Positions 10,657 through 48,317 of a stretch of 64,000 nucleotides of DNA are shown piece after piece (the stretch's first letter is position 1; every line of letters begins with the position of its first letter). The stretch is from positions 132 through 64,131 of the forward strand of contig CAYTIY010000001.1 in assembly GCA_964438045.1 (NCBI GenBank), read 5' to 3'. Source of the stretch: an uncultured Bacteroidales bacterium (GTDB lineage: Bacteria > Bacteroidota > Bacteroidia > Bacteroidales > UBA1402). The notes beneath the pieces are model-generated. The model was not told the origin of the DNA. It searched no databases and saw only the letters and a program-made list of their open reading frames with translations. A program made the position numbers and the translations under genes.

Positions 10657-11007
10657 TTAAATGGATTCCAAAACGACTTTACGGCTGATAACTCCGCTCA
10701 TGGTTTCCTCACACAAATTCAGTGTGAAATAATTTAACCAGGGCAGGATGAACGTGCCCGGATCAATAGGTGCAAGGATCATTTTTCGTTCATTGGGAGT
10801 ATAGGCACCAAAAATGGCACTGACAACATACAAATCGTCAGCTGCAATTTCAGCATACTTGATATGTGACAGATTGATCGATTCACAATCATCCTGAAGT
10901 TTGAAAAAACCGGAAACATGCATCAGGAACCGACCGAATGTCTGTCCGTCCATTCGCCAGTTGTCAAGAACCTTATCCAAACACATATATATATCCTTAT
11001 TAATCAT
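10657..11007 (-). CDS. Hypothetical cytoplasmic protein, translationally coupled to the usher-like gene
   Basis: 116-aa ORF with no signal peptide. Its ATG (11005-11007) overlaps the upstream TGA (11004-11006) as ATGA. I recognise no family. Confidence 0.5.
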   Translation of the reverse strand: MINKDIYMCLDKVLDNWRMDGQTFGRFLMHVSGFFKLQDDCESINLSHIKYAEIAADDLYVVSAIFGAYTPNERKMILAPIDPGTFILPWLNYFTLNLCEETMSGVISRKVVLESI

Positions 11008-14000
11008 GGTTGCTCAAGTAATGCTGATAATCTCACCTGTTTTGCCAACTTGACCGTTTTTTCAACAGAATGAAAGGTATTTGTTTGTACTTTATAATAA
11101 GCACCCTCCTTAACGATTCGAATTTTATCTTTTAATAGCGTCTTCAATCTATCTCTTAGAATGATGGCACTTCCAAGGGTATAAAATGCTCCAAACTGAA
11201 TGATGTAAGAACCATCACTCAATTCCAAAAACATCATGTCCCTGGTCTTTTTGCGTGAAACAATTTGTTGAATGGACTTCAACGCCCCATCCTTCTGAAT
11301 TAAATCGGTTGAACTCACCGGATTTGATTCGATAAGATTTGGGTTAGTATCCATATCTATTTGTCGTGTAGCTGCAGCCATAAGTGCTTGGTTCAAATCC
11401 CCGGCCGTCGCGCCCAATCCAGGTTCTCCGGGCATACGCTTGTCGAAGGTAACACGTCTGTTGGCGGCCCGTTCAATAACAGACATTCCATTATTGACAG
11501 GGAATGACTCTCCTTGACCCGTTGCTTTCAATTGATCGGGCGATACCCCGTTTTCAATCAAGTAGCGCATAACGCTTACGGCCCTTCGTTCACTCAACAG
11601 CTTATTGTACACGGAAGCACCCACTGTATCGGTATGTCCTTGGATTTCCAAATTAAAATCCATATTATCTTTCAGGAATCCAATAAGTTGTTTCAGCGTT
11701 CCAACATATTCCGCACGCATAGCATCCCGGTTGTTATCAAACAGGATGTAGTATTGTAGAGTATGATCGGTCAATGTATCGACCGGGGCAGCAACCAGCA
11801 TTGTGTCAGTCAACTGTTCTTTGGTCTGTGTACTGATCTTTCTCAGCACGATGTCGCCCACTTCGACAATATCGCCTTGCAAATCGGGTTTCACGGTTAC
11901 CTTGATGGGGTTGCACGCCATATTTAAGATGCTCAATTGCATGGAATCAATAGAAACAACATAGCTTCCCGGTTTGAAGCCGACATAAGAGAAATAACCA
12001 TCCGATTCGGTTAGCGTCTTAAACAGCTGTTGACCATTCTCGTCGGAGAACGTTACCAATATACGCCCTATGCCACTGCCTTTTTCGTCGTAAACCATCC
12101 CGGTTATTTCTCCCATAGGCTGTACAGCTACCGGCAATACCTTAAACTGATTAGGGTCGGTCACCACCTTGATTGTTTTATATGGAAGTTGCCAAGCCAG
12201 ATTCTGGAAGGTCGACTCATCCAAAATCAACGTATATTCGGTGAAGGGCTCCAAACCGACAACACGCATGATGGAATCTTTGACTTTATGAATAACCTGA
12301 CCTCCACTGCAACGCACACGCATGGGTTCGGTGGACGGTTCACCTTCATCACGGACACCGTTGAAATTCGTGTCCACAAAGGGGGCGATGGCAATACCGC
12401 TGCGTCCGACTGAAGCCCTTTTATCAGCGTGCACATAACCGTTGCCACTGCCAAAGGCAAAACTACCCCTGGCGCTTTGGGCTGCCTGAAACTGCCTGTT
12501 ACCCCAACCACCACTCACGCTGGCTGACATGAAGGGCAAGTCGTATCTGAAAGACAAGTTGATATTGTTGGTCCCAGCCAAGATGTTGTTTTCGTAACGC
12601 AGGGAAGCGTACCCATTGGTGAACACGCGGGACTCCACCTCACCCCTGACCGAAATCCATTGACCTGATGTATAATTGTATTGAGCCGATGGCCTGACGG
12701 TGACATGACGCCCCAGTCGCCAGCCGATGGCCGCATTGGCATATAAGTTGGCCCTGCCTGTACTGGTCCAGTTGATGAAATGGCTCATGTTGGCGTTTAG
12801 TCTGCCGTAGTTGCCACTCAACATCCATTCGCCCGAGTTGTAGTTGAAATTATCGTACAGGTTTTGCCTGTACAGGAACTTGCTGTAACCTGAAAAGCGA
12901 TTAAACCGGTAGGGTAAGGATAAACTCACCGAACGCTCCTGTAAATAGTTGTAGATGATGGCTTGTTGATCGGGATCGTATATCGCCATGTTCATATCGA
13001 ACGAGATGTTGGATGGCAGCATCAAGTTGAGGTTTACTTTCGCACGTACATTGTGGGCATACTCAGCGGTAATCATCAACTTGGGTATGGGTTGAAACGT
13101 TAGGGTGGCAAAAGGAATCTCTGGTTGGCCGCTGATGGAATTCAGGTATTCCATACCAATACCGGCTGTCAACCAGCGTGTCACCCCGTAGTTCATTTCC
13201 AATCGACCGTATAAGGAGTTCAAGGTGTCCATGACCGATCCTCCTACAGCCTTGTATTCAAACTCACCCTTCGGTAACATGTTGTAAGGCATGCTGAAAC
13301 GCTTTTCCTCTGAACGCACCTCACCGCCGGGGCCGTAAAACCGGAGTGTCATGTTGGTGGTTCCATAAACGATTGGCACATCAAAGCGGTAAAAACCGGA
13401 CGCATCCGAACGGGTGTACGAGACCATGACATTGTTGACGTATAGTTCAACAACCCAATCCGGCTCTGTGTAATCAGCAATCTGATATGTACCCAAGGCC
13501 TTTCTTACGGTGGTTGGGGCATTGGTCAGCATGAAGCCGTCCATTGGCGCCAACAGGGAGGCAATGCTGCGCGTGTTGACACGCCCAAGCTGTACCTGCC
13601 TGAGAGCACGTGAGCTGTTGTCAGCCCACCGCCAGTAGTAATTTTGTTGTTCCCTTGGCATACCGTATCGATCTGACCAATTTAATAATACATTTGTTTC
13701 ACCGCCAAATAATTCGACGCCTCCACCTAACTCCATGCGCGATTCTCCGGGGTATTTATTCGACTGACTGGAAGCAATGGACCAATCTACCATCCCACCT
13801 CTAAACCAGTGGTAATCCCTAGGGAAGAGGGTATCATACTTTATTTCATCCGATTTGCCTGCACCTAGTTTCTCACGGTTGCGTTCCAGTGTCATAAATT
13901 TCACAACAGGTAATTCGACCGTTGTCTTGAACTTAGCCGTCAATGTCCTGAAATTGAACTCAAAGGTGAAACCAAAAGCCTGGTCTAGCAAGTTCGTTTT

Positions 14001-14468
14001 CAGGTACAGGGTTCCTAAATCCATCAAGGCGTCCTTTTCCTTGATGAGGGTACGTTTGCCTTCAAAGAGAATGAAGCTGTCGGGCAAGTTGACCTCATAC
14101 GGCCTATCTTCTGTTTCCATAAACCCTTTAATCACTTTTCCGTCGGCCGATACCGTACGTACAAATCTGAACAGGGTGAGCAAGTCGTTGATGGGGAGGT
14201 ATAAAGCCCCTGGATCTTCGTAATAGGCGGGCATGCTATAAGTGCCTATCTTGTTGCCAAATGCGATAGATACATTGAAAAATTCGAGGTCTGGATTGTT
14301 CATGGCTTCCTGCGCCGAAAGCCTTTGAAAAGGAATAAAAAAAATCGTCAGCAACGACAATACGACCCCCAATCTGGCAACCAACGAACGGACGTGATAA
14401 GGATGGGAGGCTGACATTGACAGAGGTAGTTTACATAAAACAAGCGGTTGCTGATGGTAACGTGCCAC
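11004..14468 (-). CDS. Usher-like outer-membrane beta-barrel protein fused to carboxypeptidase-regulatory-like, OmpA-like and SPOR-like domains
   Basis: 1,154-aa ORF. The first ~650 aa are rich in amphipathic beta-strands. A plug-like segment reads VVELYVNNVMVSYTRSDASGFYRFDVPIVYGTTNMTLRFYGPGGEVRSEEKRF. An OmpA_C motif reads NLEIQGHTDTVGASVYNKLLSERRAVSV...RRVTF (about nt 11423-11753). The C-terminus is SPOR-like (about nt 11018-11230). The start is GTG at 14466-14468, overlapping the upstream TAG; an alternative ATG lies at 14415-14417. Confidence 0.6.
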   Translation of the reverse strand: MARYHQQPLVLCKLPLSMSASHPYHVRSLVARLGVVLSLLTIFFIPFQRLSAQEAMNNPDLEFFNVSIAFGNKIGTYSMPAYYEDPGALYLPINDLLTLFRFVRTVSADGKVIKGFMETEDRPYEVNLPDSFILFEGKRTLIKEKDALMDLGTLYLKTNLLDQAFGFTFEFNFRTLTAKFKTTVELPVVKFMTLERNREKLGAGKSDEIKYDTLFPRDYHWFRGGMVDWSIASSQSNKYPGESRMELGGGVELFGGETNVLLNWSDRYGMPREQQNYYWRWADNSSRALRQVQLGRVNTRSIASLLAPMDGFMLTNAPTTVRKALGTYQIADYTEPDWVVELYVNNVMVSYTRSDASGFYRFDVPIVYGTTNMTLRFYGPGGEVRSEEKRFSMPYNMLPKGEFEYKAVGGSVMDTLNSLYGRLEMNYGVTRWLTAGIGMEYLNSISGQPEIPFATLTFQPIPKLMITAEYAHNVRAKVNLNLMLPSNISFDMNMAIYDPDQQAIIYNYLQERSVSLSLPYRFNRFSGYSKFLYRQNLYDNFNYNSGEWMLSGNYGRLNANMSHFINWTSTGRANLYANAAIGWRLGRHVTVRPSAQYNYTSGQWISVRGEVESRVFTNGYASLRYENNILAGTNNINLSFRYDLPFMSASVSGGWGNRQFQAAQSARGSFAFGSGNGYVHADKRASVGRSGIAIAPFVDTNFNGVRDEGEPSTEPMRVRCSGGQVIHKVKDSIMRVVGLEPFTEYTLILDESTFQNLAWQLPYKTIKVVTDPNQFKVLPVAVQPMGEITGMVYDEKGSGIGRILVTFSDENGQQLFKTLTESDGYFSYVGFKPGSYVVSIDSMQLSILNMACNPIKVTVKPDLQGDIVEVGDIVLRKISTQTKEQLTDTMLVAAPVDTLTDHTLQYYILFDNNRDAMRAEYVGTLKQLIGFLKDNMDFNLEIQGHTDTVGASVYNKLLSERRAVSVMRYLIENGVSPDQLKATGQGESFPVNNGMSVIERAANRRVTFDKRMPGEPGLGATAGDLNQALMAAATRQIDMDTNPNLIESNPVSSTDLIQKDGALKSIQQIVSRKKTRDMMFLELSDGSYIIQFGAFYTLGSAIILRDRLKTLLKDKIRIVKEGAYYKVQTNTFHSVEKTVKLAKQVRLSALLEQP

Positions 14469-15001
14469 TAGTACGCTTCTATGATCAGTAAGGCTTCACT
14501 GTGGTAATCACCTGGGGGATTGGCTCCTGAGTCACCAATTTCTAAAGTACCACCCATGTAGAGTCGGTGTATATGATTGCTGCCTATTTTGGACATAAAA
14601 CGGATGTACCCTGTTCCGGTTTCCAGGATGGTACCGGATTCCAACGTAAAGTTCAATTTGGTTAGTGTCACTCTTCCGCCTCGAAGACCTGTCACATCCA
14701 TGGAAACTGGAAAGCGAATAATGACCATCCGGCCTGGTTGCAAACTAAATTCAAACTGGCCCTGCTGTACGGGGCCTCCCATCATATGGACGCTTCCCTG
14801 CCAGGAACGCTCACCAGTTGCGGAAACGGTCACCGACCCTGTCGATCCGTCGTTTGGAGCTGTAAAATATCCAAATTTCAGCGATGATGTCGGTTCCAGG
14901 ACCATCGGAGTCCTTAAGGGCAGGGTGGGCGGCGCTTGAGCCAACACACTTCCTCCCCCAATCACCAAGAACAACAAGGGGTAAATGATTTTTTTCCACA
15001 T
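14468..15001 (-). CDS. Divergent DUF4402/SCPU-like secreted subunit (candidate tip, adaptor or terminator subunit)
   Basis: 177 aa with a signal peptide. It keeps the family core (LKFGYF..., GSVTVSATGER, GQFEFS, MGGTLEIGDSGANPPGDYHSEALLIIEAY-stop). It lacks the alternating N-terminal segment and the terminal YN of the other paralogs. Confidence 0.6.
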   Translation of the reverse strand: MWKKIIYPLLFLVIGGGSVLAQAPPTLPLRTPMVLEPTSSLKFGYFTAPNDGSTGSVTVSATGERSWQGSVHMMGGPVQQGQFEFSLQPGRMVIIRFPVSMDVTGLRGGRVTLTKLNFTLESGTILETGTGYIRFMSKIGSNHIHRLYMGGTLEIGDSGANPPGDYHSEALLIIEAY

Positions 15002-15019
15002 GATGGCTGTTATTTAGAG

Positions 15020-15853
15020 TCAGGGAATCCTGTATTCAGTCCTGGCAAGTTCACTGGCACCGGCGTCTCGAGGAGTCAGAAAACGGACCACGACCTTGCC
15101 GGCTTTCAGTTTTAACGCTTTCGGCACCCTCAGAGGCAAGGTATACAACCTACGGCTTAGTTCGGTGTAAATTCCGACACCATTGGCCAGCCCCAACATG
15201 ACTTTATCACCTTGAGGGGATTCGTAATACGCTTCCAACGTGCCATAGGCAGATTGGTTACCACTCCGATTGATAGCCACTTTCATTGTGTACAACGTAT
15301 CGTTTACCTGATTGAGGGCCAGATCGGACAGCTTAACATTCAATGTCATACTCCCGTTTCGCACAATTATGGGGATACTGATGCCGAAGATAGGCGTGAT
15401 GCTCACCGACAAGCGGGAGGTATCCCCGGTATTCTCCAATCCCAGAGGTGCCGTGTTCTTGTCTGCCCTGAAATACAGGTGGGAACGGTATTCACCCTGA
15501 GCCATGTTTTGTGGCTTGCGAAACTGGAGACGTACAATCTGCGATTCACCGGGAGCTAACGTCACCCTTCGTGGAAAAATCCTCAGGTAACTGTCCGCTC
15601 TCTGTGTCGGTTGCGAAGCACTGTCGGTCACATCCAGAAACTGACCATCCTCCTTCATCTCGTACTGTAGGAATGAAATCAGGTAAACGGCTGTATCCTG
15701 TCCGATGTTGGTTAAATTAAGGTCTTCCCGTTGCTTACTATCTTCGAAAACCACCCTGATGGGGGCTACCAAAAGATTGCCCTGGGCAAAAAGTCGTTGA
15801 CCGCTCAACAAGAGCACCAACAAGACAAAGAAGTAACCGATCGTATGCTTCAT
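15020..15853 (-). CDS. PapD-like periplasmic pilus chaperone (putative)
   Basis: 277 aa with a signal peptide. LLVAPIRVVFEDSKQREDLNLTNIGQDTAVYLISF and YLRIFPRRVTLAPGESQIVRLQFRKP match the N-domain pattern of fimbrial chaperones (P.R.I...N.G..P., l.v.PP...L.PG..Q.vRl). A second beta-rich domain follows. Confidence 0.6.
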   Translation of the reverse strand: MKHTIGYFFVLLVLLLSGQRLFAQGNLLVAPIRVVFEDSKQREDLNLTNIGQDTAVYLISFLQYEMKEDGQFLDVTDSASQPTQRADSYLRIFPRRVTLAPGESQIVRLQFRKPQNMAQGEYRSHLYFRADKNTAPLGLENTGDTSRLSVSITPIFGISIPIIVRNGSMTLNVKLSDLALNQVNDTLYTMKVAINRSGNQSAYGTLEAYYESPQGDKVMLGLANGVGIYTELSRRLYTLPLRVPKALKLKAGKVVVRFLTPRDAGASELARTEYRIP

Positions 15854-15881
15854 GGTAACTGATTTTAACCTGTTAAATGCT

Positions 15882-15889
15882 CAAAGATA
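15882..15889 (-). promoter_or_regulatory. Candidate internal -7 promoter box (TATCTTTG) for the chaperone / subunit / usher genes
   Basis: The plus-strand caaagata lies 28 nt upstream of the chaperone ATG (15851-15853). It sits inside the only sizeable intergenic gap (189 nt) of the locus. Confidence 0.35.
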
Positions 15890-16042
15890 CAGATATTCCA
15901 CTATGTTGATAGTGTGAGATTATTTTTTTTTCACATAAGTCGGTATCAACTAAGCTTTTCAGCCTGAGATTAGCCGCATTTTTGAACAAGTACCGGTTCG
16001 TGCATGGAATCATGTCAAAGAACGTCTAGGACTATCCGTCCA

Positions 16043-16552
16043 TTAATTATACATGAAGACCACTTCATACGTTCCGGTATAATAACCGGCAGGGTTTGTC
16101 AGCCCATTGGCTATGAGCAAAGTGGCTCCAATGCTGATTTCCGCTTTGCCGTCGCTCTGTCTGACCACCTGTCCGCCAACCGGAACATCGGAGGTGAACT
16201 CCTCGACAGAAATTTCACTCACGCCACTTGAAAGCAGCAACCGCTGAGGCGTCTGTGGCAACATAATTGAAACCAAGCTGTTTGGCATACCGGCCACCAC
16301 AAACCGACCGGCACTGTAGGCATCATTCATCAAGGTGATACCACCCGTTGCCGTGCGTTCACCCTCAGGGGTGATCCTGACCGAACCGCCAGATGGTTCA
16401 GGCACGATGCGTCCAAAATTCAACAATTCCGTTTCAACCGCTGTGACAGGTACGGCAATTTCCACTTCCATTTTGCCCAGCACACCGGATTGAGCCTGTA
16501 ACCCAACGGACATGACCAGTAAAATCAATGAACTAAGCAGGAACCGTTCCAT
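16043..16552 (-). CDS. DUF4402/SCPU-like secreted fibre subunit paralog
   Basis: It has a signal peptide (MERFLLSSLILLVMSVGLQAQ), the LNFGRIV motif, GSVRITPEGERTATG, and the C-terminus IGATLLIANGLTNPAGYYTGTYEVVFMYN-stop. The start was moved to the ATG at 16550-16552 because the track start at 16576 is TTG. Confidence 0.65.
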   Translation of the reverse strand: MERFLLSSLILLVMSVGLQAQSGVLGKMEVEIAVPVTAVETELLNFGRIVPEPSGGSVRITPEGERTATGGITLMNDAYSAGRFVVAGMPNSLVSIMLPQTPQRLLLSSGVSEISVEEFTSDVPVGGQVVRQSDGKAEISIGATLLIANGLTNPAGYYTGTYEVVFMYN

Positions 16553-16572
16553 ATAGGTAGTTGTCAACAAAT

Positions 16573-17097
16573 TCAATTATACGAAATACTGACAGGAAAA
16601 CTCCCTGTGTACTTACCTGCAGCCTGTGAGGTAGGAATGGTCAGGGTCGCTCCCACATTGAATGTATTGTCTACACCGATGGTCCCCGTAAGCACACCAG
16701 CAGCTTTGGACGCCAGTTTAACGGTAAAGGCATTTACATCCAATTTTTTACTTTCATCCCCCGTCATTTGGAGAACAATTATTCCCGTAGGTATACTGAC
16801 CGTATAGGTGGTACCTGTCAATCCATTAACGCCAAAGACGGCGGCAGTTGGCGTGAGGTTACCTGTATTTGGAATATAGAGGTTAGTCGGGGTTATGACA
16901 TTGTCAACACCGAGGGTTAGGGTTCCAATACCTTCTCCTGTCAAAGCTACCTTTCCAAACTGCATGTCAACAGTTTTTTCAAGAGTAACTGTCTGCACCA
17001 ATTCGGCTTCCACATTGGCACTTTCAGTAGGGTTGGCTGCCTTAACAGGCAATGTGACAACCCCCAGAGCCAACAGGACACTTGTAACGTATTTCAT
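16573..17097 (-). CDS. DUF4402/SCPU-like secreted fibre subunit paralog
   Basis: It has a signal peptide (MKYVTSVLLALGVVTLPVKA), the MQFGKVAL motif, and the C-terminus VGATLTIPTSQAAGKYTGSFPVSISYN-stop. The ATG is at 17095-17097; the track start at 17106 is GTG. Confidence 0.65.
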   Translation of the reverse strand: MKYVTSVLLALGVVTLPVKAANPTESANVEAELVQTVTLEKTVDMQFGKVALTGEGIGTLTLGVDNVITPTNLYIPNTGNLTPTAAVFGVNGLTGTTYTVSIPTGIIVLQMTGDESKKLDVNAFTVKLASKAAGVLTGTIGVDNTFNVGATLTIPTSQAAGKYTGSFPVSISYN

Positions 17098-17131
17098 TCG
17101 TTTCACAGGTGGATAGGATTTGGTTTTTGGT

Positions 17132-17650
17132 TTAATTGTAACCCACGCTCACTTCAAAGTTGGCGCGGTATTCGCCTGGCGGCAGGTCAGGAGATGCGAT
17201 GATCAACTTGCCTCCTACAGTGAAATAGGCATCGGCAGTAATGATGCCTTTCAAGGCATTTTCACCGGCCGATGAGGGTCTTGCGACCAATTCTTCGATG
17301 ACAATCTGATTCCCGTCTTTTTCCAACGTGATATCAGCTGGTAATCCAATGTAATATTCGTAGTTGGGGGTACCTCTGACCTCAAAACGAGCAGGCTTCC
17401 ACCCTGACTCACCCACAGCAGTGACACCGGTGACTAAACGTTCTCCGGAAGGCTTCAGTTCCACAACGCCGGTGGTACCATTGGCCAAACGGCCGAAATT
17501 CAGATCCTCCACCTTTATCAGCTGAAGGATGTCCAGCACCATTGCTCTGGTTGTCGTATTAGCCGTAACCGCATGTTCGGCCTTCAAGAACCCTGAACAG
17601 AGAACCTGACCAACCAGAAAAAGGATGAAAAGAGGCAATCTATTCTTCAT
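17132..17650 (-). CDS. DUF4402/SCPU-like secreted fibre subunit paralog
   Basis: It has a signal peptide, the LNFGRLA motif, VVELKPSGERLVTG, ARFEVRG, and the C-terminus VGGKLIIASPDLPPGEYRANFEVSVGYN-stop. Confidence 0.65.
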   Translation of the reverse strand: MKNRLPLFILFLVGQVLCSGFLKAEHAVTANTTTRAMVLDILQLIKVEDLNFGRLANGTTGVVELKPSGERLVTGVTAVGESGWKPARFEVRGTPNYEYYIGLPADITLEKDGNQIVIEELVARPSSAGENALKGIITADAYFTVGGKLIIASPDLPPGEYRANFEVSVGYN

Positions 17651-17658
17651 TATTCAAT

Positions 17659-18195
17659 CTATTGATAGGCTACTGTCACGGAAAAACTCCCGCTGTATTC
17701 GCCTGGAACTTGGTTGGCACCAACCGTAAGGGTCGCCCCAACACTGAATGTGGCCTGACCTGCCGTGGAAAGCACTTCGGTGGAATTGTGCTCAAAATCA
17801 TTCACAGTCATTTTCTCCGTTCCACCGGAGCGGGTCAACTCCACCATACCGTCAGCCGGTAACGAAACATAAAAAGTTGCGTCGTTTTCGCCGCTGACGC
17901 TAAAAGGGGCAGCCGAAAAATCGGAGGAACTCAAGACTGAGATTCCTCCAGTGGCTGATCGTTCTTCGTCCGGGGTCACAGTCACCGTACCTACTGTGGT
18001 TGCGCGGGAAATCGTGCCAAAATTCATGGGCGTGGTTCCCGTGTTCTCCAACGAAATGGGTGCGATGATCTTGGCGTCGATGCCAATGCCGGCTTCGGTG
18101 GAGGCAACCTGGGCATGCAGCCTGCCAGACAACCCCAGGAGCACGAACACACCCAAGGCAAGTCGGCTGATTTGGTTCATTGTCTGATTACGCAT
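17659..18195 (-). CDS. DUF4402/SCPU-like secreted fibre subunit paralog
   Basis: It has a signal peptide, the MNFGTIS motif, VTVTPDEERSATGG, APFSVSG, and the C-terminus VGATLTVGANQVPGEYSGSFSVTVAYQ-stop. Confidence 0.65.
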   Translation of the reverse strand: MRNQTMNQISRLALGVFVLLGLSGRLHAQVASTEAGIGIDAKIIAPISLENTGTTPMNFGTISRATTVGTVTVTPDEERSATGGISVLSSSDFSAAPFSVSGENDATFYVSLPADGMVELTRSGGTEKMTVNDFEHNSTEVLSTAGQATFSVGATLTVGANQVPGEYSGSFSVTVAYQ

Positions 18196-18213
18196 ACCCG
18201 GTTTGTAACTTAA

Positions 18214-18834
18214 TTAGTTGTAAGCAACGATTACAGGGAACGTTCCGGTATAAGCACCGGCATTCTGATTTGCAGCAACAGAAAGCGTACCACCTACGGT
18301 AAACTTAGAGACGCCTGCTGCTGTCAGTGTGCCTGTTACAGCATCAGCAACATCATCAAGGTTGATTTTGAAAGCATTTAATGTCATTGTATTGGTGCCA
18401 GCACCACCCACTCCGGTCAACGTGACATCACTGGTGGGCAACGTAACCGTATAATGTGAACCACTTGTACCTGTAACCGTATACATGGCACAAGAAGCGT
18501 CAGTGCCAATCAAGTCAACCGTTCCAGTTGTCGAACGTGTTCCTACCTCATCAGCACCGGTTGGAGCAAGTACAACAGTACCACCCGTGTTGCCAGGAGT
18601 AACAGAACCAAAGTTCAAGGATGCTCCGCCAAAATCACCACCAGCAGTGTTAGTTTCAACACTCAAGGCATTGACTACATTAGCTTTGGCATCGGTGGCC
18701 TTACTTGTACCTTCAAATTGTGCAAATACACTCACGGGAATGGCCACGAAAGCGGCGACGATCAAAAGAGAAATGATAATCTTTTTCATAGTCGGTTTAA
18801 AATTAGAATTGTTATGATTTTGTTTATTATCCAT
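18214..18834 (-). CDS. DUF4402/SCPU-like secreted fibre subunit paralog; first of the array and candidate major subunit
   Basis: It has the LNFGSVT motif and the C-terminus VGGTLSVAANQNAGAYTGTFPVIVAYN-stop. ATGs occur at 18832-18834 and at 18787-18789 (MKKIIISLLIVAAFVAIPVSVFAQ), and either start is possible. Confidence 0.65.
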   Translation of the reverse strand: MDNKQNHNNSNFKPTMKKIIISLLIVAAFVAIPVSVFAQFEGTSKATDAKANVVNALSVETNTAGGDFGGASLNFGSVTPGNTGGTVVLAPTGADEVGTRSTTGTVDLIGTDASCAMYTVTGTSGSHYTVTLPTSDVTLTGVGGAGTNTMTLNAFKINLDDVADAVTGTLTAAGVSKFTVGGTLSVAANQNAGAYTGTFPVIVAYN

Positions 18835-18868
18835 TTTTCAAGTGGCCTGATGGCCTTTTTTTCTGATA

Positions 18869-18876
18869 CAAAGATA
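18869..18876 (-). promoter_or_regulatory. Candidate -7 promoter box (TATCTTTG) for the subunit gene array
   Basis: The plus-strand caaagata lies 34 nt upstream of the ATG at 18834. Confidence 0.4.
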
Positions 18877-18919
18877 CGGCGACCCATCCTATGGGTCATA
18901 GAAACAATAGCATCAGTAT

Positions 18920-18960
18920 GGATACAAGCCCCCGAACAAGAAGGATACAAAAAGGATACA
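18920..18960 (-). promoter_or_regulatory. Three direct GGATACA(A) repeats, including a 16-mer identical to one upstream of the giant gene (candidate activator site)
   Basis: ggatacaa occurs at 18920-18927 and 18943-18950, and ggataca at 18954-18960. The 16-mer aaggatacaaaaagga (18941-18956) is identical to 30279-30294. It lies 72 nt from the -7 box, versus 71 nt at the other promoter. Confidence 0.45.
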
Positions 18961-18979
18961 TAGGGCAACAAAGCAGGTA

Positions 18980-21900
18980 TCAATACACAACCTTCACATC
19001 GTACTTGGCAGTTTCTGAGCGCAATGAAACGATATAAACCCCGCGTTGTTTTAAGGATAACTCGAAGCGTTCACCACCGAACATAGAGTGTCTTTTGAGA
19101 ACCCGACCGCTCAAATCGTACACCATTAAGGTGTAATCATCCTTCAGTTTATTGAGATCAACCACCAAATTTTCACCCTTCACGAATATATCGGCCAGGC
19201 TGGGCTTGTCTTCGGGCTGAATGGAACCGTAGTGAAGGACAAATCGGTTGACAGGATTGGAGCTAGCAGCAGTGAAGGTATAAACAGGGAATTCAGCAAA
19301 ATCATGGAAAGTACCGGTCAGCTTGTCTTCCAGAATGACGGTGTTGGTCAACGCCGCATCAAAGCGGACTTGCAGGGTATAACGACCTTCAACACCGGGC
19401 TTGAAGGCCACGGGCGTCTTGCCGTTGGCTTCCGGGGTAGTCATACGACGAATGGTGTAAGGCTGATTCCTAAGCGGCAAATACAAGCTGGGGGCTGTTT
19501 GAACGTAGCTGAACAGTTTACCCGTTCCTTTATCATTGGTAGAAAACCCGAAAGACAGCTTGACCTCATCTTTACCCAAGCCATCCAACGATGCCACCGT
19601 CAACCGAACAGCACCGGACGCCGTTGCGTCTGATGAACGCAACCACGCACTGGCGGATTCGTGAACCCTGGCCTCGTTGGCAAAGCCCAGTTGACCGGCC
19701 GAAGCGGCTTTCACGAAGAAGCCTTGCATGGGGGCAATATACCTGGATGCGCTGAGGGTGCCCAGATCATCGGGCTCGATGGAATTGTAGACCCCATAAT
19801 TATTACTGATAGAACTCCACATCCACAGGTCGTAACCCCCGCTGGTGGCATCGAGAGCGGTGCGGGTCAAGCCGGAAGCGGCCTTCCAGTCAATGCTGCT
19901 GGGGTAGGGATTGCCGACGAGGTGGAAGCCGGACTGACTGCCGGCACCATCCTTGGTTAATGCATAATTGACAAGCCCGTTGTTGAGGTATCCCGAAAAG
20001 GCCGGTGTGGCGATGGAGTCGTATAAGGAATAGAGGTAACCGCGGCCAGGCACAAAGGTTGCCGATGGATGGGCCACTGTCCAGGTGGTGTAATCCGGTG
20101 TGGTTGTATTCAGGTTATAAATCCAGGAGGCAGAAGGTTCATCCCAGACAAACAAGTCATATGCGGTACCATCACCATACTGCCCCGCCGGAGTCCAGAC
20201 AGTACCTTGTATGGGTTGAGCTGCGACTGGCGTGGACAATAAATGCCAGGCCGCTGTATCTGTGGCCATTTCACCATTGATGTAACGACGTACGGTGGCG
20301 TAAATGCCGTCCTGGTTGCAGATGAACGAACCAGTACCCGAAGCCGTTGAGTTGATGACCAGGCCCGTCTCGCCGGCGTTGTTCACAACATTGGAAGCAA
20401 CGGTGAGGGCGCCACCACCATTGATGGTCACAACGGCACCCGCATAGATTACCAAGGTGGAGGCGGCTGCCTGCACTCCGTTGTTGATCAGGGGTTGGTT
20501 GATACGCTGGGGGATATTGGCCCTGATAAGCGATGTCGGTACATAGTGAGGCATCCAATTGCCCGGTTTGGACCAGTCCGTATCCAATGTTCCCGTCCAG
20601 TAATAACCGGAAAATTCCAGAGCACCCATGGTGGGGGGTGTGGCTCTGACCGTACCGACGTAGTCGATGTTGACCAAACCAGCCAAGGCATCCAGGGTAA
20701 CAGTCGGGGTATAGTCAACTGGCATGGTAGATCCCGGGAGAATAAAGTCCGGATTCAAATTAAGACTATTAAGATCTTGACCGGTTGCCGAACGCCAGGC
20801 AGCTATGGTAGACCTGTCTGTGGAGAGGCGGCCCAGAATACCGTTGACTCCACCGGCCCAGTAATCGTTGTAGTTGATGGTCAGACCCGACGTACCCGTC
20901 AATAAAATGGCGTAGTGTTTGCCCCCACCCGACCTGTGATTGGCCATTATATTGTTGCGAATGGTGTGTGTTCCGGTTGATTCGTTACCGAAGGCGTATG
21001 TGCTTGAGGAGGCGGCTGCAACCGTACCTCCTATGTATAACGTATTGTGGAAGATGGTCAGTGTCGAGTTGCTGGCGTTTTGTAAACCATACAGCGTCAT
21101 ACCCTTGGCCAGGCTGTCACCGATGGCGATGATGTTGTTGTACACCGAAGCCGTACCTTGTTGCATGGACATGCCATACACCACACTTTCAGGGGGAGCC
21201 AAGGGCAGCAGCATACGGTTGATAAAGTTGGTAGCCAACACGTTGGTACCACTGGTAGGACCTGCGTAGTACAGACCATATACATACACTTTGGCGGTAG
21301 ACGTATTCTGCATCTTGGAGATGGTATTGCCCGTCACTTGTTGACCAGCCGTGGTTGTTGACAACAAAAGACCAATAACGGGGGCGTTGGCACCCTGAGC
21401 TCCGTTGGCAGACCCTCCTGAGGTCAAATTGATCAAGGTATTGTTCTGAATGGTGTTGGAACCGGCGCCTATATACATACCCACCAGCTTGGAGGCCTTG
21501 ATGGTTTCAACGGTTTTGTTGCCGATGTTTGCCAAGGTATTCCCACTGAACACGTTGGTGCCAGTACCTAATGAATACAGACCATATACCAGTTGGTTGG
21601 TATTGTAAGCTTCAGAAGTGGCCTGCACACTGTTAGGAGTCGTGCTGCTCCCTATCACATTGTTGCTGACAGTAAGGTTTCCGGACACAGCCGCTTTAGA
21701 TATACCGTAGATATTTGTGGCGTTGGCTGGTGTGCTGTTGGCTGCCGTTACACTACCAACAGTGTTGTTGTTACAAGTGACCGTCCCTGAACCCTGTATA
21801 CGAACACCGTAGAAGGCAGCGTCCGAGCCGCTGTTCGTCAAGGTAATGCTACCCGTGCCCGTTGGTGCACCAAATACATTACCAGTCGTGGAGCCCACGT

Positions 21901-24900
21901 TTACTGTACCCCCGGCAACATGAACACCCACCATGTCGGCTGCCCCTGTATTGTTGAAATTGAAACCCCTGAATGTATTGCCTTGAAGGCTGGTTGCCGT
22001 GGCAGTGCTGACATTGAGGTAAACACCATAGAACGTGGTGGCCTGACCAATCTTTGACCAGGTCCCCACAGCACCGGGTGCTTGACCACCCAGGAAATTA
22101 TTGATCACTTGGAAGCCTTGTCCGGTTGTGTTGTCGATACGAATCAAGGCGTATTCGCAGGCAACAGGCACCGACTGGGTCAAGGTGTTGTAGATACTGT
22201 TGCCGGACACAGTAAAGTCTGTCGTATTGGTTGACAAATAAATTACATTGGAAGAAACACCTGGTATCAAGAGGTCAAAGAAGGCATTGTCTACTATCTG
22301 AGTAGCATTGTTGGTACGGCCTACTGTTCCAGCTGAGTACACAGCGTTGAGTGGACGTTCGCTGGAATTGAGTCCGGTGATTTGATTGTAGCGCACCACG
22401 TTGCCCACGTTACCGGTACCCGTAGATGAAGTACCTAAGTGAACAAGGCCTGTCGCTGTACCTTGACCCGCCCCTTTCAGGATACAATACTGCAAGGTGT
22501 CTTGTTGGGCCGACTCAGCCAGTTTGATGGTTGAAGCGTTGGTACCCGTGCTGATATTTGTAAACGTCAGGCCGGGGGTTGATCCAATGGCGTTTACGCG
22601 GCCGTCGATGGTCACTCGGTCAGCTCCTTGTAAAAGCACCAAGGGGGCGTTCATGGAGCCAGCAACTGCAATATTCTCCCTGGTCGCGTATACGCGGACC
22701 CGGCTGTAGGAAGGGCCACTTCCACTAGCCAGCAAGGAAGCTGTCGCCGTTTCGTAGGTGCTTTTTAAAATCTTGACAGTAATGTCGCCTGTCCAAGCCG
22801 AGGAATTGATGTCGTCAAACGCACTCTTCAGTGTCGTATAAGCTTCCCGTTTGGTGTTGTTCGTCCAGATTTCCACACAGAGGAAATACTCCCAGGCACC
22901 TATGGTGGGGGCCGTCATGCTGCGTTCACTAGCCCCAAAATCAGTCAGGACGCCGGCAGGTATGCCATCCAGCAAACCACCCGTTTTGTAATCCAAAGGC
23001 GAGTTGCCACCAGCGTTGAGTAGGCCAGGATTACTGGATATACTGGCTGCATCTTTCGAGGTTGCCAGCCTCCAAGCTGCAACCGTTGTGTAGTTGCTGG
23101 CGCCCAACCGCCCCAGCATATTCGTGCCCCCCGGTACATAGTAGTCGTTGCCGTTGATGGCCGACAAAGAAGATATACCGGACAATGAAATGGCGTAATG
23201 TCGGCTTGACGTGTTGCCTCCGGTGCGGGCGTTGTACAAGATATTGTTGAGCAAGTAAGAGGCTCCAACATCAGAATATTTAATAAATGCATAAGTCAAG
23301 GCTTGAGAACCTGTTCCATTCACCGTACCAGATAGATATACCGTGTTGTGGGCTATGGTATCGGAAAAATCGGTCACACCCAACTCGTAAATGCCGTAAA
23401 TCAGATTATATCCGGTGATATTGCCCCCAAGACTGATGACATTATTGACACAGGTGGAGGAACCATTTTGAAGCCAAATTCCTGAAATGGATGGGGATAC
23501 GCTTGCTGAGGCCAACGAAAGCCTGTCTACAAAATTACCTTTGATCTGAGCTGAACCTGTACCGGTCTTATAGATGCCGACAACCTGGTTGCCAGTGTTG
23601 TTGTACGTGGATGCGTTGTAGAGGTTGCTGACCGTGTTTCTTTCCACGATCCACTTGCCTGTCCCTTCATAACGGAGCGCGTCGAGTCGTTGCGCCTGGG
23701 AGGTGGCAGCACTGGTTGTTTGCACACTTTGAGTAGTGGTGTTGCTACCAACGGTGTTGTCGCTAACTGTAAGTTGAGCATTGCCCGTACCGTATATACC
23801 GTAGAAGTTGTGTGCGTAACCGGCCGAAGAGGTAACCGTAATGCCCCCCAGGGTGTTGTTGGATACGGCAACATCGCCGCCACCACCCACATAAATACCA
23901 GCAGAACTGGCGTTGGAGGCTGCCGATGTCACGATGATTTTACCGTTACCGGCCATGGCTCCGATGATATTGCCCCTTTCGGTGCCCAGATTTACCGATC
24001 CTCCCGTCACATAAAAGGCAGCAAATGGTTGGTTGGAAGCACTGACCACGTTCAGGTTGGTGACGGTATTGCCCTGGAGGCTGGAAACAGAATCCGTCCC
24101 CACATTCACTTGGAAAGCCGTAAAGGAAGCAGCCGCCGATGTTACCCCAACGTTCATGGTATTTCCCAAACCTTGCTCCAAGGTGCCACCCACGAAATTA
24201 TCAGCCACAATATGCCCACCTCCGGCGGTGTTGTTCAGGTTGACCGCCGAATAGATGTATGCCCCTGTCGGGGTGAAGGCTGTTGTTTCGTAGAAATGGT
24301 TGCCGGTCAACATCCAATAATCGGAGCCTGCTCCCAACATCACCATGTTGGCGCTGGAAGCCTGTCGCCAGGTGTCAACGAACGTATTGTTTGAAACGAA
24401 GTTGTCACTGTTCGTCCGCCCCGTTGTTCCTTGTGAAAGAAGGGCATTGTACGGTCTGAGGGTAGTGCTCAATCCGGTAAAACGGTTGTTGTTAATGATG
24501 TTGTTGTCGTTACCTTCACCGGTAGAAGCGGTTGAGATATGCAGGATGGCTGAAGACGTCCCCGAACCAGCACCACTCAAGAGGCAGTACTGTATCTTAT
24601 TTTGAGTCGCAGACTCACCAAGTCTGACAGTGTTGGCCGACGAGCCTGTATTTAGATTGGTCAAGGTTAAGTCAATGGTTGTTCCCACCGTGTTTACCCT
24701 ACCATCGAACGTGACATTGTCGGCCCCGTTTAACCGGATGATGTCACCGTTGAGGTTCCCCCTGACCACGACATTGCTTCTGATGGGATGAATCAAGACG
24801 CTGCTGTAGTTGGCTGAACCTGTTCCGCTGGCGTTCAGTTGGGCGGTAGCGGTTTCCAGGGTGCTACCTTTTAGTTTAATGGTCAGATCCCCTGTCCAAG

Positions 24901-27900
24901 TGCCAGCATTGATGGCATCGAAGGCATCTTTCAAGGTGAAGTAAGAGGAACGGTAGGTGCTGCCGTTGAGGACATCCACGGGGAAGCACTCCCAGGCCCC
25001 CATCGTCGGACTTCCGGCACTACGTGTCAACCCGCCAAAATCTGTCGAAACACCTGTTCCCGGAATCCCGTCAAGACCAATGTTGGTCTTGTAGTCGACA
25101 GGAAGGACGCCACCCATGTTGACAAACTGCGGATCCAGAATCAGGCTATGGGTATCTTGTCCCGCCATGGTTTCCAACCATTGTTGCAAGGTCACCAGAT
25201 TACCTGAATTGATGGTTGCAAAATAAGTACCTGACCAGCCGTAGTCATTGTAATCGATGGTCAGGTTGCTGGAACCGTGTAAGTACAAGGCATAATTGGA
25301 TCCTCCACCGGAACGGGTGTTGTAGAAAACGTTGTTGCGAATGTCGCGCTGAGCCGGAGTGCCGTCTGTCCTTTCCCTGAGCGCATAAGAGGTGGTGGTA
25401 CTGCCGTCAGACACGACACCGCCCAGGTGAATGGTGTTGTGGTAAAGATTGAACGCCTTGGGAGTATTTTTCAATATTCCGAAAATGTTGCAACCTTTTG
25501 AAATGCTGTCACCCATGAACACAATATTGTTAAAGGCTGACAAGGAGCCGGTAAAAGTTCCCGTCGTATTGTGTATAGAAATGCCATGGAGGTAACAAGT
25601 GGTGCTTTCGGACAGCATCTTGAACCCCTTTACGAAGTTGCCGGCCACTGTGTCGTTCCCACTTGAGGAAGGGGTCATGTAAATACCGTAGAACTCAACT
25701 TGTGACGTCGTGTTGCTCGTGAGTCGGCCGACCTGGTTTTGGACGATGTAGTGGGGATAGGCTGATGCATACACATGGATGCCCGTCATGGACACGTTGG
25801 TGTAATTGGCGCCGTTCGCTGAGCCGTTTGACGTCAGGTCATGGATGTTATTGCCGATGATACGGGATCGACCACTCAGCACATAGATGCCATAAGTCTT
25901 TGAACTGAGAGTGGTTTCGGTGGTGGCATTATAGACGTTGCCTACTGTATTACCTTGAATCAACACCAGGTCTGTCCCTTCTGAAAAAATGCCATACACC
26001 GTCTGCGATTGGCCGGTGGCGCTGCTGCTGACTAGTACACTCTCCGGTTTCGAAGGACTACCGATGTAGTTATTCCGTATGGTCAATGTGCCAGTTGTGG
26101 GGCCTTTATAAATAGCGTGGAAACTGTGGGCGTTGGCGTTGTTGGTTGAGGATGTGGTAATGGAACCAATCGTATTGTTGGCGATGACTGTGGAGGCTGT
26201 GTTGACGGCATATATACCATAAGATGTGGCCGAAGTCGCCGTGCTTGTCAGTTGGATGGAGCCTATGCCAACGGTGTCCCCTATGCTGTTGCCTGCAAGG
26301 GCGCCCACGTCCAGGCTGCCGTTATTGAGGTATATGCCGAAGAAAGGTGAAGTGGCCGAACTTCTGATAGCCAGGTTGCGAATGATGTTGCCATGTAACA
26401 ACGTGGGTGTTGTCGTACCTGTATTGATATAAATGGGGATAAAGGCCAGGCCTCTCAAAGTGCCACTGACTCCTATCTGCAGGGGGCTACCCAAACAAAG
26501 CATATCCTGACCACCGATTGCATTGCCGGACAGTTGAAATCCATGGCCTGAAGTATTTGACAAGTTGATACCGTAGTACGTATAATTGCCACCAGGCGTG
26601 AAACTAGTGGTCTCATACAGGCTATTACCGGACAGCACCCATCCTGATGTCCCCAACCCCAGGTTGACACCATAGGAAGTCGTTGTGGTGGACCAGGTGT
26701 CGTAGAGTTTATTGTGTAGCAGTATATGGCCCGTGTTGGTGCCACCGGCTGCGTACACAGCATTGACCCTGCGTGTGCCATTGTTGGTGATGTGACAACG
26801 CTCAACCATATTGGCGGTGTTGATGCCGGAAGCACCAAAATGGATGGTACCGTTGGTGCTGGATCCCCCTCCACCGCGCACGTAGCAGTAGCGGAGAGTG
26901 TCTTGTTGGGTCGAATTGTTGAACAGTACTGTGACCGCAGATGCACTGGTACTGGTGTTGGTCAGTGTCAACGAGGGCTCCGATCCTGTTGCGTCTACCC
27001 GACCATCCAAGGTGACGTTATCGGCACCGTTGAACGTAATCAGTGGAGCGTCCAGGTTGCCCGTCACCGTCAAATTGGCAATGGTGGGGTGTACCAGCAC
27101 CCGGGTGTAGCTTGCACTACCTGATCCGCTTGCATTGAGTGCTGCGGTGGCATTTTCCGAGGAATTGCCGATCAGCTTCACAGTCAGGTTGCCGGTATAG
27201 GTACCATCGTTGATCTTGTCGAAGGCCAATTTCAAGCGACGAAAACTGGCTTTGTAGATGCCATTTTGGTAAACCTCGACCGTGTTTAGGGCAGCCAATT
27301 CCCAAGCTCCGATTGTGGGCTCAGCCGGGCGTTCCGATCCATCATAGTCGGTGGTGGTGGTTCCTTCAGAATTGGTTGCAGTCAGTACTTCAGTGGGTAT
27401 ATAGGCTTCAGCGTAGGCACCCCCTTCCTCTTCAAACACGGGGTCGGCAGAAAGGCTGGTGGCATCCAAGCTTGCACCCGTCTGCCAGGACGACAAGGTC
27501 GTGTAGGTGTCGGTCGTATAGGTAGTGGCATTATAGGCCCAACCCAGGGCGCTGTTGGTGCCGGACACATACAGGTCGTTGTTGTTACTGACGACCCCAG
27601 ACGTCGTATTCAAAGCGATGGCCATATGTTTGCCCGTGCCTGTGCCCCCGGATCTATCGTTAATCAGCAGATTCCCCGATAGATTAATGTCGGTGCTCCA
27701 ACCATCTTTGTAGAAGGCAACTGAATTGGCGTTAGTGCCTGTAGTGGTACCGTAAATATAAACCGTGTTGTGCAGATAGGTCTCCGACGCACCGCTTTTG
27801 CTGAGTATGCCGCAAATGGTATAGTTCTTGCCATCCAACCCCTCACCCAGTGATATCACATTATTGTACGCCGACAAGGGGCCTGCCCCCCAGTGATAAG

Positions 27901-30133: not shown

Positions 30134-30207
30134 CTTGTTTATCCTATTCACTATCAACTCTTTATATTAACATATTACCCATATGGGCAAGGTATCACTA
30201 CCAACAC

Positions 30208-30215
30208 CAAAGGTA
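30208..30215 (-). promoter_or_regulatory. Candidate -7 promoter box (TACCTTTG) for the giant gene
   Basis: The plus-strand caaaggta lies 75-82 nt upstream of the ATG at 30133. Confidence 0.35.
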
Positions 30216-30278
30216 AGACACACATTTCAAAGCCTTTGTGCATCAGTCAGAGCAAAAAGTAACAGGCAGAGCTAAACC

Positions 30279-30309
30279 AAGGATACAAAAAGGAAGCAAT
30301 CAAGTATCC
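30279..30309 (-). promoter_or_regulatory. Copy of the 16-mer aaggatacaaaaagga plus an inverted GTATCC half-site (candidate activator site)
   Basis: 30279-30294 is identical to 18941-18956. gtatcc at 30304-30309 forms an inverted repeat with ggatac at 30281-30286. Confidence 0.45.
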
Positions 30310-30326: not shown

Positions 30327-31157
30327 TTAAAACGAAGAAATATAGCCCACCAGGTTCTCATCATTGCCCAGGTTCAATTTCTTCCTCAGCCTGGTCCTGG
30401 CAATCCGGACGCTGTCGTACGTTTGAAACGTCATGCCCGAGATTTCCTTGGTAGAGAGATTCATACGCAAATACAAACACAACTTCATCTCGGCTGGAGT
30501 CAGATTGGGATGTTTTTCACCCAAATTCCTGAAAAATTGCTGGTCCGTATCCTTGATGCGTTGCTCTACTTGATTCCAGGATGACGTTGTTCCTTCTGAA
30601 TTAATGTCCCTGATCAAACGATCAATATTCTCAACCAACAAAGAAGGGTCGGAATTAAAACTGCTTTTCAACTGCCTGAGTTCGTTGACCACTTTGTTGC
30701 GAAACTCTTCGCTTTGAACCTTTTGCATTGACATGGCTACAGCTTCCCGTCTCTGTGCTTCAATCATCTTGTTGTAGTAGTCCCTTACCGAGAGTACGGA
30801 TTTCACACGTGTCAAGAGCTCGACATTGTCAAATGGTTTCCGGATAAAGTCAACCACACCAGCCTGAAATGCCTTTTCCAGGTAATCCTTTTCTGAATAA
30901 CACGTAATCATGATGACGGGTATGGAAGCGGTGGCCTCATCTTCCTTTAAAATCTCAACAGCCCTTACGCCGTCAATGCCGGGCATTTGCCAATCCATCA
31001 GTATCAGGTCAGGATTGGTCTCTCTGGCCTGCTTGATGGCTGAAGTACCATCAAACGCAACCATCAGTTCGCAATCCATCTTTCGCGACAGCACAATAGA
31101 AACCAATGAAACCGCATGAGGGTTGTCATCAACGACCAGGATTCGATTTTTTGGCAT
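30327..31157 (-). CDS. Response regulator: receiver domain, coiled linker and C-terminal LuxR/GerE-like HTH
   Basis: The receiver is intact (ILVVDDNPHAV..., DLILMDWQMPGIDG, VIMITCYS, FIRKPF). The C-terminal HTH is LTPAEMKLCLYLRMNLSTKEISGMTFQTYDSVRIARTRLRKKL. The start was moved to the ATG at 31155-31157. Confidence 0.75.
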   Translation of the reverse strand: MPKNRILVVDDNPHAVSLVSIVLSRKMDCELMVAFDGTSAIKQARETNPDLILMDWQMPGIDGVRAVEILKEDEATASIPVIMITCYSEKDYLEKAFQAGVVDFIRKPFDNVELLTRVKSVLSVRDYYNKMIEAQRREAVAMSMQKVQSEEFRNKVVNELRQLKSSFNSDPSLLVENIDRLIRDINSEGTTSSWNQVEQRIKDTDQQFFRNLGEKHPNLTPAEMKLCLYLRMNLSTKEISGMTFQTYDSVRIARTRLRKKLNLGNDENLVGYISSF

Positions 31158-33094: not shown

Positions 33095-33102
33095 TATCTT
33101 TG
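33095..33102 (+). promoter_or_regulatory. Candidate -7 promoter box (TATCTTTG) for the orphan subunit gene
   Basis: tatctttg lies 30 nt upstream of the ATG at 33133. Confidence 0.35.
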
Positions 33103-33132
33103 GGATATCAGAACCACCTAAATCCCAAAGTT

Positions 33133-46440: not shown

Positions 46441-48317
<1,877 letters not shown>

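Follow-up and report, generated by a model that had tools for sequence, protein, structure and literature searches.

Direct repeats with a period of 10-11 bp, placed 5' of an activator-dependent promoter that lacks an upstream core element, are familiar from the pho boxes read by OmpR/PhoB regulators. The canonical sites of ComA are inverted repeats. According to one study, ComA of Bacillus subtilis, which carries a LuxR-type tetrahelical helix-turn-helix (HTH), can recognise direct-repeat elements (PMC4797271). At the Bordetella promoter PfhaB, BvgA occupies phased sites at -88.5, -66.5 and -44.5, the strongest of which is the most distal (PMC9708447). The core element recognised by sigma-A in Flavobacterium psychrophilum lies at -12 to -5 and has the consensus TAnnTTTG (PMC9723704). 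Here we analyse a candidate activator site in a 64,000-nucleotide stretch of DNA from an uncultured Bacteroidales bacterium (GenBank assembly GCA_964438045.1, contig CAYTIY010000001.1, positions 132 to 64,131; the whole stretch is called the window, and coordinates count from its first letter). Its most conspicuous part is a 16-mer that precedes both a giant gene, whose product carries a type IX secretion system (T9SS) sorting domain, and an array of DUF4402 genes encoding putative fibre subunits. To our knowledge, very few transcription-factor sites have been defined in Bacteroidota outside the regulators of polysaccharide utilisation, and none for DUF4402 arrays and the giant T9SS proteins that adjoin them. 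A site for a response-regulator activator is an ordinary kind of gene switch; the array described here has not been described before.

The repeat array and its conservation

An earlier note, made from the window's letters alone, had reported the 16-mer AAGGATACAAAAAGGA on the plus strand at 18941-18956 and 30279-30294. Both copies are exactly there, they are the only two in the window, and on the minus (coding) strand they read TCCTTTTTGTATCCTT. They are also intergenic and 5' of minus-strand genes, as the note had it: the subunit-side copy lies in the 190-nt spacer between the stop codon of the giant gene (18980-30133) and the first DUF4402 gene (ATG at 18789), and the giant-side copy lies in the spacer that runs from the stop codon of RR1 (30327-31157), which encodes a response regulator, to the start of the giant gene (ATG at 30133). 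The repeats begin 24-35 nt past the stop codons of RR1 and the giant gene. Downstream of each copy stands a TAnnTTTG box, CAAAGATA at 18869-18876 and CAAAGGTA at 30208-30215 in plus-strand letters. Read on the minus strand these are TATCTTTG (18876-18869) and TACCTTTG (30215-30208), which by their fit to the consensus are the predicted sigma-A -7 boxes of the subunit operon and the giant gene, respectively. The distances of 72 and 71 nt from 16-mer to box and the three copies of GGATACA at 18920, 18943 and 18954 likewise agreed with our count. Similarity between the two promoter regions is confined to the repeat units, and the regions are otherwise unalignable.

The probability of about 3e-5 that had been attached to this recurrence was misapplied, being valid for a 16-mer specified in advance; for any recurring 16-mer in 64 kb, counting both strands, about one is expected. 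Five more such words, non-palindromic and 16-18 nt long, do in fact recur in the window, every one of them in coding DNA. By itself, then, the repetition of a 16-mer carries little weight as evidence, and the argument rests on conservation. Exact coding repeats of 16-18 nt in unrelated genes (11666-11682 and 32098-32114; 20664-20681 and 58468-58485; 46694-46709 and 50017-50032) were taken as chance. Also present is a near copy of the 16-mer, TCCTTTTTGTATCGTA on the plus strand at 9268-9283, with two mismatches, antisense within the feoAB fusion gene; it has no -7 box at 71 nt and is probably fortuitous.

To follow the motif through related DNA, loci were gathered through protein searches with RR1 or the giant protein, not by the motif. 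A scan of the genome collection with the giant protein gave related loci whose giant proteins are 54-68% identical to that of the window, and the nearest relatives in public genomes are metagenome-assembled genomes (MAGs) of Bacteroidales. A metagenome scan with the RR1 protein as query gave 17 loci with orthologues 58-89% identical, one of which (L029) ends inside RR1. The 18 spacers compared are thus those of 16 metagenome loci, of L005 and of the window. In this phylogenetic footprint, which the earlier note had proposed as a check, the motif was found after the RR1 orthologue in all 18 spacers: 15 are exact for the 13-mer CCTTTTTGTATCC, and the other three carry one or two changes. The form conserved after every RR1 orthologue is (T)CCTTTTTGTATC(C), its G lying 71±1 nt 5' of TAnnTTTG. 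One more locus, from Lutibacter (L006; giant protein 40% identical), has another gene order and no motif, and is too distant to inform the comparison.

Second or third copies precede DUF4402 subunit genes in seven loci, namely L002, L019 (two promoters), L020 (two), L022, L028, L030 and the window. The copies in L019, L020, L022, L028 and L030 lie 7-10 kb downstream, all with the tandem arrangement GTATCC-T5-GTATCC that is conserved in nine subunit-type promoters. Motif promoters total 27, from 19 loci (20 clusters at 70% spacer identity), and in 27/27 the G of the GTATCC nearer the box (unit B, below) lies 70-72 nt 5' of the T of a TAnnTTTG-type box. In pairwise comparison, identity averages 0.72 over the 16-mer and 0.86 over the box, as against 0.34 for the DNA between and around them (spacer plus upstream sequence).

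Two pairwise comparisons illustrate this pattern. L002 keeps TTGTATCCTTTTTGTATCCTT..TTGTATCC in the spacer that leads from the giant gene to the first DUF4402 gene, the subunit-promoter 16-mer is exactly conserved, and the box stands 80 nt from the start of the 16-mer, the same as in the window. The spacer between RR1 and the giant gene in L005 has diverged but retains three islands at unchanged spacing: TGCTTCCTTTTTGTATCCTT (20/20 identical), TGTTACTTTTTGCTCT (16/16 identical) and the -7 box.

Across 346 kb of orthologous loci there are 24 exact copies of the 13-mer CCTTTTTGTATCC, against the 0.013 that base composition predicts. All 24 copies are intergenic, on the RR1-coding strand and at a set distance from a -7 box, with none elsewhere in the 346 kb. 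The earlier note had named membership of a dispersed repeat, found at many unrelated sites, as the finding that would count against it; within these 346 kb of related loci no copy lies outside RR1-linked promoters. Nor does the element resemble REP- or MITE-like repeats, having two copies in the window and similarity that stops at the units, and a mobile element is contradicted by the unalignable flanks and by the absence of flanking inverted repeats. The idea that the 16-mer is a chance recurrence of an A/T-rich word, or part of a dispersed repeat or mobile element, can point to the five other repeated 16- to 18-mers where about one is expected; judged by the conservation at orthologous positions, it is effectively refuted. 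On the same footing, the conserved cis-regulatory array is real.

The 16-mer proved to be the strongest part of a larger array whose true unit, as read from the aligned promoters, is an 11-bp direct repeat with the consensus TTTTTGTATCC and the core TTGnnTCC. It comprises the TCC of one unit (A), five T, a full second unit (B) and TT. Each promoter carries four phased units in two tandem pairs, with their G at -82/-71 and -49/-38 from the T of the box. The distal pair, which holds the 16-mer, is nearly invariant, and the proximal pair (C and D) is weaker and degenerate, appearing as information peaks at -49/-48 and -38. For unit A, subunit promoters have GTATCC, and giant-gene promoters have GCTTCC, CGATCC or TGTTCC. 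The forms of unit C, at +22/23 from unit B, are TTGT(A/T)TCC, CTGTAGC or CTGTTAC; those of unit D, at +33/34, are TTTTTGCTCT, TTCTGTAT or AATGATGCT. The 16-mer put forward as the binding site therefore survives as the conserved, and presumably high-affinity, core; the functional unit would be the 11-bp repeat, and the full site all four phased units.

In the window's subunit promoter (all on the minus strand), unit A is TGTATCC at 18954-18960, the unit B hexamer GTATCC occupies 18948-18943 within the 16-mer, unit C is TTGTATCC at 18920-18927, in the TTGT(A/T)TCC form conserved at this place in other loci, and the degenerate unit D is ATACTGATGCT at 18909-18919, on the -38 information peak and in the register seen in L052 and L056. 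Their G positions, 18959, 18948, 18925 and 18914, lie 83, 72, 49 and 38 nt from the box. In the giant promoter, unit A is TTGCTTCC at 30292-30299, unit B is the GTATCC at 30286-30281, and units C and D are CTGTTAC and TTTTTGCTCT at 30249-30265; the G positions, 30297, 30286, 30263 and 30253, lie 82, 71, 48 and 38 nt from the box. The two blocks identical in L005 cover the 16-mer and the C-D pair of this promoter, respectively.

Two other candidate elements were rejected. The 8-mer ACTGATGC, shared at 18917-18910 and 30247-30240, differs in register (G 38 versus 29 nt from the box) and represents unit D in the subunit promoter only. A palindromic operator GGATAC-N17-GTATCC at 30309-30281, with the subunit counterpart GATAC-N17-GTATC, has no conserved equivalent in L005 or L014. 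The units, being direct repeats, lack the dyad symmetry of a NarL/LuxR operator.

The adjacent response regulator and its relatives

RR1 (30327-31157, minus strand; 276 aa) joins a receiver to a LuxR/GerE-type four-helix HTH through a helical linker of about 100 aa; Pfam supports the receiver, and hhalign, AlphaFold and Foldseek support the HTH. The receiver matches PF00072 with an E-value of 2e-28. The C-terminal 60 residues align with the GerE HTH of the NarL-type regulator RR2, encoded nearby, at an hhalign probability of 90.6% (E 1.3e-6), and some RR1 orthologues have a precomputed PF00196 hit. The AlphaFold model (pLDDT 84) has a receiver, helices at 111-215 and a four-helix bundle at 221-274, and its best full-length Foldseek matches are VraR, LiaR, FixJ, StyR, DesR and RcsB. 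Usual receiver-HTH proteins have a short linker and measure about 200-220 aa, which RR1 exceeds. As modelled, RR1 is of the NarL/FixJ type, and its helical linker is unusually long. All orthologues share the same recognition helix, SVRIARTRLRKK, which fits the invariance of unit B. The family spans 270-282 aa and was found only in MAGs and metagenomes.

The earlier note had named both neighbouring regulators, RR1 and the NarL-type RR2 (32362-32991), as possible binders. The motif always lies directly 3' of the gene for RR1 or a homologue. In L024, L052 and L056 the repeat architecture stands beside an RR1 homologue, with no RR2/HKhyb operon in the stretches read (9.6 kb upstream and 10 kb downstream in L024, about 8 kb on each side in L052, and the 8.8-kb locus of L056). 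RR1 is therefore favoured as the binder, and of the two candidates proposed the neighbouring LuxR-type RR1 is the one that the distribution of the motif supports.

The more distant homologues carry the register further. The regulator of L052 is 38% identical. Four copies of the variant unit TTGCTTCC stand there in the spacer that precedes a gene of more than 2524 aa, with their G exactly at -82, -71, -49 and -38 from the box TACTTTTG; this is the same variant that serves as unit A in the window's giant promoter. L056 (also 38% identical) has two tandem regulator paralogues, each followed by GTATCY at -72, -61, -49 and -38, so that the proximal pair is the same as elsewhere and the distal pair is one helical turn nearer. 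In L060 a proximal pair is found at -48/-37.

We noted two further features of these loci. Each array of L056 (4753-7705) has its own TACTTTTG box, and the first would drive the second regulator gene, a possible cascade or feed-forward arrangement. Right after the RR1-family gene of L052 (8830-9030), a 10-bp unit, GTGAGCTAAA or GTGAACTAAA, is repeated in tandem about 22 times, and about 300 nt further on (9330-9420) inverted copies (TTAGCTCACTTTAG) lie just 5' of the TTGCTTCC array and the gene of more than 2524 aa.

Promoter context, proposed mechanism and alternatives

The box itself is TAnnTTTG in 25/27 motif promoters; those of L025 and L026 end in A (TACTTTTA and TAAATTTA). The second sigma-A element, TTTG at the -33 position (spacer of 17-23 nt), was found in 2/27 and is missing from the other 25. 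The promoter of RR1 in these loci reads TTTG-N19-TAnCTTCA. The TTTG inside the repeat units does not serve as the -33 element, as no TAnnTTTG follows 19-21 nt after it and 38-82 nt upstream is too far. A sigma-54 reading of GCCTGTTACTTTTTGCT was likewise rejected, since the window lacks the GG of the -24 element and in L005 the spacing misses by one. If the box spans -12 to -5, the unit Gs would fall at about -94/-83 and -61/-50 from the predicted start and the unit centres near -91, -80, -58 and -47, which would put both pairs on one helix face and the end of the proximal pair beside the place of a -33 element.

Between array and box, the window's subunit promoter contains a hairpin, TGACCCATaggATGGGTCG, at 18880-18898 (minus strand), which scored as terminator-like in the scan and is lineage-specific. 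A hairpin at the same place in L002 (11056-11079; GGTTCCCCCtaggaGGGGAACC) has a wholly different sequence from that of the window (GACCCATaggATGGGTC). In both the stem is perfect, and the T-rich tract that comes after it is itself the -7 box; no such hairpin stands between array and box in the other loci. Probably it is the terminator of the giant gene nested in the next promoter.

We read the array as a predicted upstream activator site for RR1 that co-regulates the giant protein and the fibre subunits, and we put the probability of this reading at roughly 0.7. Both halves of what the earlier note had suggested gain support: a shared regulatory site tied to the neighbouring LuxR-type regulator from its presence in 18/18 spacers at a register of 71±1 nt, and co-regulation from the motif before DUF4402 genes in seven loci. 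Phosphorylated RR1 would bind the near-invariant distal pair and would then cooperatively fill the weaker proximal pair, which the register would place on the same helix face. From there it could contact or recruit sigma-A polymerase at a promoter whose missing TTTG leaves it without a -33 element, and, given the conserved architecture that the two promoters share, the giant T9SS-secreted protein and the fibre-subunit operon would be switched on together. Activator dependence is plausible because TTTG at -33 occurs in just 2/27 motif promoters. That RR1 binds the array, that the array activates rather than represses, that binding is cooperative and where transcription starts are points we infer from the sequence.

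Several observations weigh against this reading. The GerE match of RR1 falls below the Pfam cut-off (13.2 versus 23.5 bits). Most regulators of the NarL/FixJ family bind inverted repeats, and the units here are direct repeats. A site centred near -86 is far from polymerase, so that the model needs the degenerate proximal units to be occupied. The second-site promoters were found via the motif itself, which makes motif conservation there partly circular. Copies were counted in the 346 kb and the window, and a larger regulon or a different, genome-wide factor would be compatible with that count. Among distant homologues, arrays are only partial in L057 and L060, the repeats of L050 differ, their period being 12-13 bp and their register not matching, and no array was found near the RR1 homologues of L054, L058, L059 and L061. 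The rule is therefore not universal for the RR1 family.

The main alternative is that the operator is real and is bound by another factor, an unlinked regulator or RR2 of the divergent operon. The HTH of RR2 is a canonical GerE domain, its recognition helix is likewise invariant, and the gene is conserved beside RR1 in most loci; yet L024, L052 and L056 keep the architecture with neither RR2 nor HKhyb in the stretches read, which reach 8-10 kb per side at most, and the motif always follows the RR1 gene directly. We consider another binder unlikely. It is also improbable, in our judgement, that the array, whether bound by RR1 or by something else, acts negatively or architecturally, as a repressor or anti-activator site or as a roadblock between transcription units. 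Such a role would suit the position of both window copies just past the stop codon of a co-directional upstream gene, and the terminator-like hairpin in the array-to-box spacer of the window and L002. The sites, however, at about -95 to -45, overlap neither the -7 box nor the predicted start, the promoters lack the -33 element, and a strict helical register to the box is what an activator that contacts polymerase requires.

Since the repeats start 24-35 nt past the RR1 and giant-gene stops, read-through RNA would contain them, and they might work at the RNA level as a 3'-untranslated region, a processing signal or the leader of read-through transcripts. This we regard as very improbable. No match at the Rfam gathering threshold was found in the window (the sole hit in 18700-19050 is rimP, E 0.16), and no structure between motif and box is conserved across loci, the hairpin being limited to the window and L002. 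What is conserved is a distance to a DNA promoter element, together with 10-11 bp phasing. An invertible promoter was excluded: inverted repeats of at least 12 nt and good complementarity do not flank the promoters, and the cluster encodes no recombinase.

An RR1 activator site thus remains the preferred reading, and a wider one can be offered tentatively, at somewhat worse than even odds. The 270-282-aa RR1 homologues may form a Bacteroidota-wide, uncharacterised class of activators that read two tandem pairs of 11-bp repeats at -82/-71/-49/-38, with the register replacing the missing -33 element; the whole would then be a dedicated promoter grammar for giant T9SS proteins and DUF4402 fibres, an undescribed surface structure.

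The surface gene cluster and comparison with described systems

The giant gene (18980-30133, minus strand) encodes 3717 aa with a signal peptide, four internal repeats of about 780 aa and, at the C-terminus, a sorting domain of T9SS type A (TIGR04183, matched at 24.7 bits where 23 is the cut-off), which places the source in Bacteroidota; the protein has no Pfam domain. The subunit array (14468-18789, minus strand), syntenic across related loci, comprises six DUF4402 genes and a 277-aa gene. The first five DUF4402 genes lie at 18214-18789, 17659-18195, 17132-17650, 16573-17106 and 16043-16576, followed by the 277-aa gene at 15020-15853, which has a weak PapD_N match (E 0.009), and by the sixth DUF4402 gene at 14468-15001. 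Gene order in the cluster is conserved. On one side of a divergent spacer are a LytS-PAS hybrid kinase and then an operon of REC-only, DUF4402, RR2 (NarL-type) and REC-HisKA_3 kinase genes; on the other side are RR1, the giant gene, the DUF4402 subunits, the weakly PapD-like gene and a 1154-aa OmpA/SPOR gene.

The regions 11004-18789 and 33100-33639 resemble an undescribed fibre system, with six tandem DUF4402 paralogues, a seventh DUF4402 gene inside the regulatory operon, and the 1154-aa protein (CarboxypepD_reg, OmpA, SPOR) standing where an usher might be expected. DUF4402 was not mentioned in the literature searched, a profile search of PDB sequences gave no match, and the structure model of a subunit (pLDDT 52) was too poor for a fold search. 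In the 190-nt gap that follows the fifth subunit gene, a further TATCTTTG box (15882-15889, minus strand) stands 29 nt 5' of the ATG of the 277-aa gene and has no repeat units upstream. A separate, motif-independent promoter may accordingly serve the assembly genes, namely the PapD-like one, that of the sixth subunit and that of the 1154-aa OmpA/SPOR protein.

In the window's clade, promoters of both types also have short GC-rich palindromes or hairpins about 20-40 nt 3' of the -7 box (30175-30190 and 18840-18856, minus strand, in the window; about 9900-9925 in L005, 10965-10990 in L014 and 11100-11120 in L002). They read CCCATATGGG in the giant-gene leader and AAGGCC-loop-GGYC in the others, and may form a stem-loop in the 5' leader.

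If RR1 reads the array, the element would be a precise regulatory link in which one regulator, through a four-unit site, governs two or three promoters per locus in a conserved cell-surface gene cluster of uncultured anaerobic-digester Bacteroidales. The pattern TCCTTTTTGTATC-N64-66-TAnnTTTG can be used to search MAGs for co-regulated genes. The promoters would also be natural examples of Bacteroidota promoters that depend on an activator and lack a -33 element, useful for understanding and engineering promoter control in this phylum.

Compared with Bacteroidota sigma-A promoters (TTTG at -33 and TAnnTTTG at -7), the motif promoters share the TAnnTTTG-type box, and 25/27 are without the -33 TTTG. 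The array is like the tandem boxes of OmpR/PhoB in being made of direct repeats with a 10-11 bp period. Those boxes, however, are bound by winged-helix domains and overlap the -35 region, whereas RR1 has a four-helix HTH of the GerE/LuxR type as its output domain, and the cluster holds no gene for an OmpR-type regulator. ComA indicates that direct repeats are possible for the HTH class of RR1; it belongs to another phylum, reads another motif and has no four-unit fixed register.

The closest parallel is BvgA of Bordetella, acting at PfhaB and fim. The differences are clear: BvgA reads imperfect palindromes of 14 bp, spaced by 22 bp, at sigma-70 promoters with -35 and -10 elements, whereas the window's arrays are 11-bp direct repeats in two pairs at -7-box promoters without a -33; the two show no sequence relationship, and RR1 has an extra helical linker of about 100 aa. 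Nevertheless BvgA occupies, and RR1 would occupy, several helically phased sites between about -100 and about -40 as a response regulator of the NarL/FixJ family, with the best site outermost and the weaker ones filled towards the core promoter. BvgA co-activates the gene of a giant beta-helical adhesin together with fimbrial genes, the same logic as we propose for RR1, the giant T9SS protein and the DUF4402 fibre subunits.

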